DNA from: a virus
Lineage: Duplodnaviria; Heunggongvirae; Uroviricota; Caudoviricetes
Length of the DNA stretch: 64,000 bases
Direction: 5' to 3' (one strand)
Virus record (IMG/VR): IMGVR_UViG_2721755728_000011
Made by a program: the position numbers. Position 1 is the first letter of the stretch. Each line of letters opens with the position of its first letter. Below, piece after piece: positions 49,601 through 55,600 of this stretch.

Positions 49601-52600
49601 ATGAGCGATATCCCGGCACTGTCAGATTTGATCACCAGTATGGTGGCCAGTGGCTATGACTACCGGCGCGACGATGATGCGGGCCTGTGGAGTTCAGCCG
49701 ATCTGACTTATGTCATTACCTATGAAATGTGAGGACGCTATGCCTGTACCAAATCCTACAATGCCGGTGAAAGGTGCCGGGACCACCCTGTGGGTTTATA
49801 AGGGGAGCGGTGACCCTTATGCGAATCCGCTTTCAGACGTTGACTGGTCGCGTCTGGCAAAAGTTAAAGACCTGACGCCCGGCGAACTGACCGCTGAGTC
49901 CTATGACGACAGCTATCTCGATGATGAAGATGCAGACTGGACTGCGACCGGGCAGGGGCAGAAATCTGCCGGAGATACCAGCTTCACGCTGGCGTGGATG
50001 CCCGGAGAGCAGGGGCAGCAGGCGCTGCTGGCGTGGTTTAATGAAGGCGATACCCGTGCCTATAAAATCCGCTTCCCGAACGGCACGGTCGATGTGTTCC
50101 GTGGCTGGGTCAGCAGTATCGGTAAGGCGGTGACGGCGAAGGAAGTGATCACCCGCACGGTGAAAGTCACCAATGTGGGACGTCCGTCGATGGCAGAAGA
50201 TCGCAGCACGGTAACAGCGGCAACCGGCATGACCGTGACGCCTTCCAGCACCTCGGTGGTGAAAGGGCAGAGCACCACGCTGACCGTGGCCTTCCAGCCG
50301 GAGGGCGTAACCGACAAGAGCTTTCGTGCGGTGTCTGCGGATAAAACAAAAGCCACCGTGTCGGTCAGTGGTATGACCATCACCGTGAACGGCGTTGCTG
50401 CAGGCAAGGTCAACATTCCGGTTGTATCCGGTAATGGTGAGTTTGCTGCGGTTGCAGAAATTACCGTCACCGCCAGTTAATCCGGAGAGTCAGCGATGTT
50501 CCTGAAAACCGAATCATTTGAACATAACGGTGTGACCGTCACGCTTTCTGAACTGTCAGCCCTGCAGCGCATTGAGCATCTCGCCCTGATGAAACGGCAG
50601 GCAGAACAGGCGGAGTCAGACAGCAACCGGAAGTTTACTGTGGAAGACGCCATCAGAACCGGCGCGTTTCTGGTGGCGATGTCCCTGTGGCATAACCATC
50701 CGCAGAAGACGCAGATGCCGTCCATGAATGAAGCCGTTAAACAGATTGAGCAGGAAGTGCTTACCACCTGGCCCACGGAGGCAATTTCTCATGCTGAAAA
50801 CGTGGTGTACCGGCTGTCTGGTATGTATGAGTTTGTGGTGAATAATGCCCCTGAACAGACAGAGGACGCCGGGCCCGCAGAGCCTGTTTCTGCGGGAAAG
50901 TGTTCGACGGTGAGCTGAGTTTTGCCCTGAAACTGGCGCGTGAGATGGGGCGACCCGACTGGCGTGCCATGCTTGCCGGGATGTCATCCACGGAGTATGC
51001 CGACTGGCACCGCTTTTACAGTACCCATTATTTTCATGATGTTCTGCTGGATATGCACTTTTCCGGGCTGACGTACACCGTGCTCAGCCTGTTTTTCAGC
51101 GATCCGGATATGCATCCGCTGGATTTCAGTCTGCTGAACCGGCGCGAGGCTGACGAAGAGCCTGAAGATGATGTGCTGATGCAGAAAGCGGCAGGGCTTG
51201 CCGGAGGTGTCCGCTTTGGCCCGGACGGGAATGAAGTTATCCCCGCTTCCCCGGATGTGGCGGACATGACGGAGGATGACGTAATGCTGATGACAGTATC
51301 AGAAGGGATCGCAGGAGGAGTCCGGTATGGCTGAACCGGTAGGCGATCTGGTCGTTGATTTGAGTCTGGATGCGGCCAGATTTGACGAGCAGATGGCCAG
51401 AGTCAGGCGTCATTTTTCCGGTACGGAAAGTGATGCGAAAAAAACAGCGGCAGTCGTTGAACAGTCGCTGAGCCGACAGGCGCTGGCTGCACAGAAAGCG
51501 GGGATTTCCGTCGGGCAGTATAAAGCCGCCATGCGTATGCTGCCTGCACAGTTCACCGACGTGGCCACGCAGCTTGCAGGCGGGCAAAGTCCGTGGCTGA
51601 TCCTGCTGCAACAGGGGGGGCAGGTGAAGGACTCCTTCGGCGGGATGATCCCCATGTTCAGGGGGCTTGCCGGTGCGATCACCCTGCCGATGGTGGGGGC
51701 CACCTCGCTGGCGGTGGCGACCGGTGCGCTGGCGTATGCCTGGTATCAGGGCAACTCAACCCTGTCCGATTTCAACAAAACGCTGGTCCTTTCCGGCAAT
51801 CAGGCGGGACTGACGGCAGATCGTATGCTGGTCCTGTCCAGAGCCGGGCAGGCGGCAGGGCTGACGTTTAACCAGACCAGCGAGTCACTCAGCGCACTGG
51901 TTAAGGCGGGGGTAAGCGGTGAGGCTCAGATTGCGTCCATCAGCCAGAGTGTGGCGCGTTTCTCCTCTGCATCCGGCGTGGAGGTGGACAAGGTCGCTGA
52001 AGCCTTCGGGAAGCTGACCACAGACCCGACGTCGGGGCTGACGGCGATGGCACGCCAGTTCCATAACGTGACGACGGAGCAGATTGCGTATGTTGCTCAG
52101 TTGCAGCGTTCCGGCGATGAAGCCGGGGCATTGCAGGCGGCGAACGAGGCCGCAACGAAAGGGTTTGATGACCAGACCCGCCGCCTGAAAGAGAACATGG
52201 GCACGCTGGAGACCTGGGCAGACAGGACTGCGCGGGCATTCAAATCCATGTGGGATGCGGTGCTGGATATCGGTCGTCCTGATACCGCGCAGGAGATGCT
52301 GATTAAGGCAGAGGCTGCGTTTAAGAAAGCAGACGACATCTGGAATCTGCGCAAGGATGATTATTTTGTTAACGATGAAGCGCGGGCGCGTTACTGGGAT
52401 GATCGTGAAAAGGCCCGTCTTGCGCTTGAAGCCGCCCGAAAGAAGGCTGAGCAGCAGACTCAACAGGACAAAAATGCGCAGCAGCAGAGCGATACCGAAG
52501 CGTCACGGCTGAAATATACCGAAGAGGCGCAGAAGGCTTACGAACGGCTGCAGACGCCGCTGGAGAAATATACCGCCCGTCAGGAAGAACTGAACAAGGC

Positions 52601-55600
52601 ACTGAAAGACGGGAAAATCCTGCAGGCGGATTACAACACGCTGATGGCGGCGGCGAAAAAGGATTATGAAGGGCCTTATTCAGTTCTTCCTGACGGGCGG
52701 TATATTTCTCCAGCGGCGTCAGCAGACGCTCATACGCCTTCTGCGCCTCTCCGGTATACTTCAGCTGTGATGCGTCCCGTTCGGCCCGGTCCCTGGCGGC
52801 CAGTTCACCGGCTTTTTCCATATCCGACTGCAGCGTGGCCGCTGCCAGCCCCAGACGGGCATTTTCCCGGTCATTCCATGCACCCTGAAGGTTCGCACGA
52901 AAAGAGGCGGTTTTTCCCCGGCGCTGGCTCCGGCTCTGGTACCACTGCCATTTTTTATCCGCCTCATCAAATGCCTTCTGTGCACTGGCGAGCATATCCG
53001 CTGAGGACTCAGGACGACCGATATCCAGAATGGCATCCCACATCGATTTGAATGCCTTCCCGGTTTTATCCGCCCAGGTCTCCAGTGTCCCCATGTTTTC
53101 TTTCAGGCGACGGGTCTGCTCATCAAAGCCTTTCGTGGCGATATCGTTCGCCGCCTGTAAGGCCCCGGCCTCATCACCGGAACGCTGCAGCTGCGCAACA
53201 TACGCAATCTGCTCTGCCGTCACGTTACGGAACTGGCGCGCCATCGCCATCAGCCCCGACGTCGGGTCGGTGGTCAGTTTTCCGAAAGCCTCTGCAACCT
53301 TGTCCACCTCCACACCGGATGCAGAAGCAAAACGCGCGACACTCTGGTTGATGGCATCAAACTGTTCACCACCACGCACACCGGCATTCACCAGGGCTGC
53401 CAGTGACTCACTCGCCTGGTTAAACGTCAGCCCTGCGGCCTGTCCGGCTCTGGAGAGCGTCAGCATGCGATCGGCAGTCAGTCCGGACTGATTACCGGAA
53501 AGAACCAGGGTTTTATTAAACGCTGAAAGCGTGGAATCCCCCTGGTACCAGGCGTACGCCAGCGCACCTGTCGCCACCGCCAGCGAGGTGACCCCGACCA
53601 TCGGCAGGGTGATCGCACCGGCAAGCCCCCTGAACATGGGGATCATCCCGCCGAAGGAGTCCTTCACCTGACCGCCCTGTTGCAGCAGGATCAGCCAGGG
53701 ATTCTGACCACCGGCAAGCTGCGTGGCGATATCCGTAAACTGTGCGGGCAGGGTTCGCATGGCCGCTTTATACTGCCCGACGGAAATCCCGGCTTTTTGT
53801 GCAGCCAGCGCCTGGCGGCTCAGGCCCTGTTCAACAGCACTGGCGGTTTTTCTGGCGTCGGTATCCAGACCTGAAAAATGACGCCTTACCCGGCTCATCT
53901 GCTCATCGAAACGGACCGCATCCAGACTAAGGTCAATAACAAGATCACCAACCGGCTGGGACATATCTCACACCTCCGGAAATCCCCGCTGAAGCCATCA
54001 TTAATGCGGCATCATCCACCATGACATCCGCCACATCCGCAGACGATAAAATATCGCGCCCTCCGTCCCCACCGAACCGGACGCCTCCGGCAAGTCCTGC
54101 CGCTTTCTGCATCAGCATTTTGTCCTCATCCGGCCTCTCCACCTGCTCTTCCTCATGCCGGGGGACAAGCAGACTGAAATCAGAGGGATGCATATCCGGA
54201 TCGCAAAAAAACAGGCTGAGTACAGCGTACGTCAGCCCGGAAAAATGCATATCCAACTGGGTATCGTGAAAATAATGCATGCGGTAAAAATGTCGCCAGT
54301 CGGCATATTCGGTGGATGTCATCCCGGCAAGCATGGCGCGCCAGTCAGGCCTCCCCATCTCACGCGCCAGTCTGAGGGCAAAATTCAGCTCGCCGTCGAA
54401 GACTTTCCCGCAGAAAAATCATCATCAGTCAGCGCGTTATTTTTCGCCACTTCGGTAATATCCGTATCCACATGAACAGGCCCGCTCATCCCGGACAGAC
54501 GCAACACCACATCTTCCGCCCGGGCAATGGCATCAGCAGGCCAGGTGGTCAGGACTTCCTGCTCAATCTGCATCACGGCCTCATTCATTGACGGTGACCC
54601 CGTTTTCTGCGGATGGTTATGCCACAGGGACATCGCCACCAGAAACGCGCCGGTTCTGACGAGATCTTCCACGCTTACCTGCAGGTTGCCGCTGGATTCT
54701 GCCTGTTCTGCACGCCGTTTCAGGAGGGCAAGATGCTCAATACGCTGCAGCGCAGACAATTCGGAAAGCGTGACAGACACACCGTTATATTCAAATTGTT
54801 CTGTTTTCAGAAACATGTATGACCTCCGTTTACCCTGCAGCGCCTGCTTCAGTAACGGTGACTTCAGCTACCGTGGCAAACTGACCATTACCGGAAATCA
54901 CGGGGATACTCACTTTTCCAGCCTTAACCCCCGTCACAGTGATCACCATATCTTTCACAGCAATGGTTCCCGTTGACGGATCGGCGGAAACCGCTCTGAA
55001 CGTCTTGTCGGTTGCACTTTCCGGCTCAAAAGAAACAGTCAGGGTGGTTGTTTTTCCTTTTTCCACGGTACCGGATGTCGGTGTCACCTTAATTGCAGTG
55101 GCCGGCGTAATTTCGCTGCGTTCTTCCGCCACGGAAGGTTTGCCCACGTTGGTCACTTTCACTGTTCGGGTGATCACTTCTTTCGCCGTCACTGCCTTAC
55201 CGATACTGCTGATCCAGCCACGAAACACATCCACCGTGCCATTCGGAAAACGGATTTTATAGGCCCGCACATCCCCGCTTTCAAACCAGCCTATAAGCCC
55301 TTTCTGACCTTCTTCTCCCGGTTTCCAGGCCAGTGTAAAACTGGTATCACCTGCAGATTTCTGTCCCTGCCCGGTCGCGCTCCAGTCCGCGTCTTCATCA
55401 TCCAGGTAGTTATCATCGTAGGATTCTGCCGTCATCTCGCCCGGCGTCAGATCCTTCACCTTAGCCAGTCGCTGCCAGTCATCATCTGACAACGGGTTTG
55501 CATAAGCATCACCCTTGCCGGTGTAAACCCACAGAGTGGTACCGGCACCTTTTACCGGCGCCAGGGGATTTGGTGTTGGCATATCGTCCTCACATCTCGT

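Follow-up and report, generated by a model that had tools for sequence, protein, structure and literature searches.

Two converging half tape-measure genes in a prophage sequence from Escherichia coli are most likely an assembly artefact

In IMG/VR virus record IMGVR_UViG_2721755728_000011 (Caudoviricetes), analysed here as a single stretch of 64,000 nucleotides (nt; "the window"), two copies of the tape-measure gene H, each from a different lambdoid prophage, run towards one another on opposite strands and abut with no spacer, both having lost their 3' ends. How did two half genes come to lie tip to tip? An earlier note on this DNA described the arrangement, which stands, and proposed that it arose either by an illegitimate deletion between two prophages lying tail to tail or by misassembly. 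The second proposal provides the best explanation. From a second mirror joint 17.8 kb to the left, from the bases on which the joined pieces end and from the absence of both joints from sequence collections, we infer (with a probability of roughly 0.85) that the H/H joint is a place where repeat-bounded assembly pieces were set end to end, and not a biological rearrangement.

The plus-strand H (51327-52671) retains codons 1-448 of 853 and the minus-strand H (53964-52672) codons 1-431 of 859, close to the 448 and 430 codons first estimated. The plus arm is lambda-like (99.6% nucleotide identity to lambda H, J02459 10542-11886) and the minus arm diverged, the two being 85% identical to each other; the plus arm is also 100% identical to the intact H of many E. 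coli, as far as base 52671 and no further. Both arms contain a complete TMP_2 domain (PF06791; 236 bits, E = 4.5e-70 for the plus arm and 233.7 bits, E = 2.2e-69 for the minus arm, against a gathering cut-off of 30.2 bits), and both thus carry an N-terminal domain of the lambda gpH type. Like lambda gpH, then, each encodes the N-terminal half of the protein with its full domain; unlike lambda gpH, neither is complete (448 and 431 of ~853-859 codons), and neither could therefore set tail length. Neither arm continues as a full-length open reading frame (ORF; ~853 codons) followed by M-L-K-I-J: each reads through the joint into the antisense strand of the other. The plus-strand chimeric ORF (51327-53051) specifies 574 amino acids, comprising H codons 1-448 followed by ~126 codons antisense to the other H; that on the minus strand (52369-53964) specifies 531 amino acids, comprising codons 1-431 of the second H followed by ~100 codons antisense to the first. 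As the earlier note had claimed, both flanking prophage segments lack the H C-terminus and M, L, K, I and J, and no copy belonging to these two prophages occurs elsewhere in the 64-kb window; the genes from J to L that are present at ~9-16 kb are those of a third prophage.

Alignment of intact H genes with those of the window places the joint between bases 52671 and 52672. The mirror-type joint described previously is therefore present, with its position shifted from 52670/52671: bases 52670-52671 ("AG") are assignable to either arm. This 2-nt overlap is the microhomology at the breakpoint, and the joint is marked by a short quasi-palindrome, TGAAGG-G-CCTTATTCA. In natural H genes the sequence past base 52671 (plus type) reads CGACGCTGAAAAAGCC..., and the natural continuation of the minus-strand H reads CTGAAAGACGGG.... 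The description of one H becoming the reverse complement of the other holds broadly, though not as an exact mirror: the plus arm reaches H nt 1345 and the minus arm ~nt 1275-1277, a difference of 70 nt, and an inverted-repeat search at the joint returned 107-nt arms with 66 nt between them. The asymmetry arises because a stretch that is identical in both H types (52602-52671 on the plus strand; 70 nt, or 66-70 nt) is present once only, in the orientation of the plus arm.

Each arm leads back into a different prophage. The plus arm forms the right end of a 17.8-kb fragment (34864-52671, plus strand; hereafter piece 2) of the lambdoid prophage found at the argU/DLP12 site, assigned by its identity to strains C3 and OkiPb01675. 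Its gene order is the 3' part of a DUF968 gene, quuD, a porin gene, lysis genes, bor, nohD, terminase, head and tail-tube genes, and H to codon 448. Over 17,741 nt, window positions 34864-52604 match the argU/DLP12-site prophage of C3 (L002 15001-32741) at 100% identity, and positions 40000-52670 are 100% identical over 12,671 nt to the same prophage in OkiPb01675, with H identical through 52671. In OkiPb01675 this prophage carries a normal H of 2562 nt, followed by M, L, K, I, J, lom and a tail fibre gene. The minus arm belongs to part of an effector-carrying lambdoid prophage (52672-64000, minus strand; piece 3), which runs past the window end and contains the N-terminal part of H, T, G, V, U, Z, head genes, and genes for the portal and large terminase. 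Piece 3 is 99.94% identical to L001 15000-26330 of the bovine strain C3, the match beginning at window 52670-52671; in relatives, the effector-carrying prophage has a normal H of 2580 nt, followed by M, L, K, I and J.

The closest relative is C3 (NZ_CP010119), in which four segments are matched at 99.2-100% identity. The prophages concerned lie in C3 at 3.48 Mb (ssrA), 2.96 Mb, 0.27 Mb (argU) and about 4.61-4.62 Mb (the effector-carrying prophage), and the three pieces that make up the window probably derive from one C3-like bovine E. coli. For each arm, relatives (C3, OkiPb01675, FDAARGOS_1059) carry at a separate locus an intact prophage with 99.8-100% identity to it. In FDAARGOS_1059 both H prophages are intact, with full-length H genes, in the same orientation and ~275 kb apart; in the O103:H2 strain 20151001 the two H prophages again share an orientation and are ~275 kb apart; and across the relatives examined the distance is 0.27-1 Mb, mostly with the same orientation. 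Comparison with strains that carry the prophages separately thus finds both intact at distant loci, and the proposed deletion between tail-to-tail prophages is not supported.

The second mirror joint lies at 34863/34864, the other end of piece 2. Here two 5'-truncated copies of a DUF968 gene diverge: the 3' 396 nt of the copy from the third prophage, that of piece 1 (34468-34863, minus strand), abut the 3' 400 nt of the copy from the argU/DLP12-site prophage (34864-35263, plus strand). The arms of the inverted repeat (34468-34862 and 34865-35259; 395 nt) are 95% complementary, with 2 nt between them, and the natural DUF968 sequence preceding each arm reads ...GTGCCGTCTGT. Window base 34864 corresponds to L002 15001, within the coding sequence 14411-15400. 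From left to right the window therefore zigzags through three prophages, one for each piece (minus, plus, minus), and at each turn it does so at the same coordinate of a shared gene.

If the pieces are contigs bounded by repeats, then they should end where paralogous prophages cease to be distinguishable, and this is where they end. Intact H genes of the A type (OkiPb01675) and the B type (C3) differ throughout their N-terminal halves and are 100% identical from nt 1276 to ~2372 (~1.1 kb). The minus arm stops on the last private single-nucleotide polymorphism (SNP), a C/A difference at alignment column 1293 (window 52672), at the edge of this 1.1-kb exact repeat. The plus arm, whose last private SNP is at 52601, extends exactly 70 nt beyond it into shared H sequence and stops on column 1363, where the window has G and the B-type H of FDAARGOS_1059 has T. 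The two bases in the centre of the DUF968 joint represent the C/T SNP that separates the copies, each arm starting on its own variant (34863 and 34864), and the 59 nt adjoining the joint are identical between the C3 copies. All four piece ends fall on bases that distinguish paralogues or on repeat boundaries. The chance of all four doing so is 1e-3 or less on a rough estimate, which takes the SNP density near the DUF968 joint as 2-5% and the target at the H repeat edge as ~3 nt. A physical break has no reason to end on distinguishing bases; a process that compares reads or k-mers does so by construction.

Neither mirror joint is reproduced in independent assemblies. The H/H joint is covered by none of 5,426 complete E. 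coli genomes; its exact 40-mer has no match in GTDB species representatives, IMG/VR or JGI metagenome contigs, and the joint was not found in 50,697 phage records. Both chimeric ORFs are without an exact-protein match in a public index of called genes. The DUF968 joint is likewise absent from the 5,426 genomes and has no exact match in the GTDB representatives.

Assembly, scaffolding or concatenation could have produced this geometry as follows. Piece 1 would comprise ssrA and a prophage; pieces 2 and 3 would be the unique middles of the argU/DLP12-site and the effector-carrying prophage, respectively. An assembler would halt where the paralogous prophages become indistinguishable, on one side in DUF968 and the early-gene region and on the other in the C-terminal 1.1-kb exact repeat of H. 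Sibling pieces entering the same repeat would finish at the same gene coordinate and, if placed side by side in opposite orientation, would give rise to convergent or divergent half-genes. The mirror geometry would thus follow because sibling pieces leading into one repeat share an end coordinate, and concatenation would also explain why the repeat is absent, why the ends lie on SNPs, why the joints are unique and why the sequence between them is normal. In several respects the window is like known contig breaks and mis-joins at repeats: its pieces end where the distinction between paralogues is lost, its joints are private and the pieces are otherwise normal; as at contig breaks, the repeat itself (the H C-terminus and the 5' part of DUF968) is missing. 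The usual mis-joins at repeats are same-orientation hybrids, whereas here the sibling pieces are opposed and the repeat is omitted, which has the look of plain concatenation and not of an incorrect route taken through an assembly graph.

A number of observations weigh against this explanation. We could name no algorithm that would set sibling contigs next to each other facing opposite ways. The overhangs do not agree, being 70 nt at one end (as fits a de Bruijn graph with k = 71) and 0-2 nt at the other three. The pieces also contain exact inverted repeats of 137-142 nt and so are not unitigs of the plain k = 71 kind. The DUF968 joint, in the proxy genomes, falls inside a region of ~98.5% identity instead of bordering a long exact repeat. 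Finally, the C3 record, which is labelled a complete genome, also has odd joints in the same H stretch, and these leave room for a real fragile site.

Two particular routes to an artefact were rejected. A U-turn at a (k-1)-mer node of a bidirected de Bruijn graph (k = 71) explains the 70-nt asymmetry at H, but the 70 nt that it predicts are absent at the DUF968 joint. Ordering of the pieces along a reference is suggested by all pieces lying on one C3 strand, but with only three independent pieces this is not significant, and the two prophages are arranged the opposite way in the O103:H2 strain and FDAARGOS_1059.

Piece 1 itself (1-34863, minus strand), assigned by identity to C3 prophages, consists of ssrA and a lambdoid prophage that ends inside the DUF968 gene. 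The ssrA (transfer-messenger RNA) gene, detected with ARAGORN at 40-402 on the plus strand, is collinear with ssrA of C3 and provides a chromosomal anchor at the left end of the piece. It begins 39 nt from the window start and specifies the tag ANDENYALAA; its neighbour, as in C3, is the tail-fibre end of the prophage and not an integrase. The late genes of the prophage occupy the minus strand (tail fibres, J, H, head, terminase, lysis, Q and the 3' part of DUF968). Piece 1 is a same-orientation mosaic of two C3 prophages: window 1-29686 is 99.2-99.7% identical to the prophage at ssrA and window 26000-34863 is 99.8% identical to that at 2.96 Mb. The tail region of the effector-carrying prophage is matched at 98% identity by the segment 9275-16373 (J to L, with an Ant/Arc module). 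The longest exact repeats of the window are inverted and link piece 1 with piece 2 in their lysis and DUF968 regions, measuring 142 nt (31057-31198 and 37636-37777) and 137 nt (34669-34805 and 34922-35058).

The C3 record, too, has private, non-homologous joints in this H gene, within the 70-nt stretch where those of the window fall. In the argU prophage of C3 (L002 31464-39980, ~258.9-267.4 kb) nt 1-1278 of H are followed by J-lom', then 'J-lom', then H from nt 1337 to its end, and then M-L-K-I-J. The first H segment is fused in frame to the J C-terminus, and this H'-'J joint occurs in one of the 5,426 complete genomes. In C3, H breaks at nt 1278 and 1337, 1-8 nt away from the breakpoints of the window (1275-1277 and 1345). 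The simplest common cause would be that two assemblies of near-identical prophage sets break at shared repeat boundaries, and this would explain the coincidence. Of the private C3 joints in J and lom, one (31925) coincides with a paralogue SNP, a second misses by 2 nt (29202 vs 29200) and a third by 8 nt, a pattern that is suggestive only. A literature search on the C3 record and on comparable misassemblies found nothing useful.

Suppose, alternatively, that the joints are real. The account that then survives best invokes two inversions of the non-homologous end-joining type between directly oriented paralogous prophages broken at allelic positions, one pair of breaks in DUF968 and the other in H: the wrong ends would be ligated, the intervening chromosome would flip and mirror joints would be left behind. 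The geometry fits, given the same-orientation prophages ~275 kb apart in 20151001 and FDAARGOS_1059: an inversion between allelic breaks there would give a plus H N-terminus followed by the reverse complement of the other H N-terminus. A 2-nt overlap such as that at the H/H joint is typical of end-joining products, and the same 70 nt of H contain the private joints of C3, which could be the sign of a site that is fragile or targeted by a nuclease. On the other side, the account demands that one lineage underwent two rare events independently and that in each of them both breaks fell at the same gene coordinate, and it leaves the four ends to fall on paralogue SNPs by chance (roughly 1e-3 or less); moreover, neither joint is present in any other genome searched. 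To our knowledge E. coli is without the Ku/LigD end-joining pathway, and alternative end joining is very inefficient, which counts against such inversions; so does the usual counter-selection of inversions that span hundreds of kb and are asymmetric about the origin. It is improbable that a C3-like bovine lineage underwent allelic double-strand breaks in prophage DUF968 and in the 70-nt H stretch (one that C3 also has interrupted), wrong-end joining and large inversions. Were this nevertheless true, it would indicate a sequence-targeted break in prophage tape-measure genes.

Less probable again is that tail-to-tail prophages formed a long imperfect palindrome whose centre was deleted by hairpin or SbcCD-type processing, an event that would have removed both H C-termini together with all distal tail genes. 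Central deletions of long palindromes tend to a roughly symmetric outcome, and such a deletion would explain why both H genes end at nearly the same codon. Yet in every relative examined the prophages are 0.27-1 Mb apart and mostly in the same orientation, and the ends on SNPs are left unexplained. A further event of this kind would be needed to account for the head-to-head DUF968 joint, and that requires three alternating prophages with no chromosomal DNA between them.

The least credible of the mechanisms that would make the joint real is a replication template switch, or fold-back, at the quasi-palindrome, giving an inverted-duplication joint. Both the quasi-palindrome and the 2-nt overlap are compatible with it. 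Copying at a single locus, however, predicts identical arms, and the arms are 85% identical, matching different prophages at 99.9-100%; because they come from different loci, fold-back survives only as a switch between distant loci. The window shares with fold-back, tandem-inversion-duplication and palindrome-deletion joints a mirror form, little or no spacer and a short microhomology. Fold-back-type joints differ in arising at one locus with identical arms: those of the window join different prophages, at 85% (H) and 95% (DUF968) identity.

Homologous recombination can be set aside. Inversions by this route between lambdoid prophages occur in enterohaemorrhagic E. coli and, like the joints described here, involve paralogous prophage genes with end points inside prophages. 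Such inversions produce intact hybrids with the crossover in a tract of identity, as the earlier note had rightly argued for inverted H genes, whereas here both genes are truncated and flipped: orientation changes at the joint, the private SNPs of the two parents (52601/52671 vs 52672) are adjacent, and no more than 2 nt are shared. A simple inversion of 34864-52671 fails too, in silico re-inversion yielding DUF968/H joints and not the natural order, and restriction and ligation is dismissed because the CCCGGG that adjoins the DUF968 joint does not place the joint at the cleavage position.

The H/H joint is, in our judgement, not a genuine feature of the organism and is most likely an artefact of setting assembly pieces end to end. 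If so, this stretch, which holds at least two such joints (34863/34864 and 52671/52672), is unfit for inferring prophage structure, the loss of H, M, L, K, I and J, or chromosomal rearrangement. If instead the joints are real, they would represent unusual non-homologous inversion joints at allelic sites of paralogous E. coli prophages, and the tape-measure gene might contain a fragile site.

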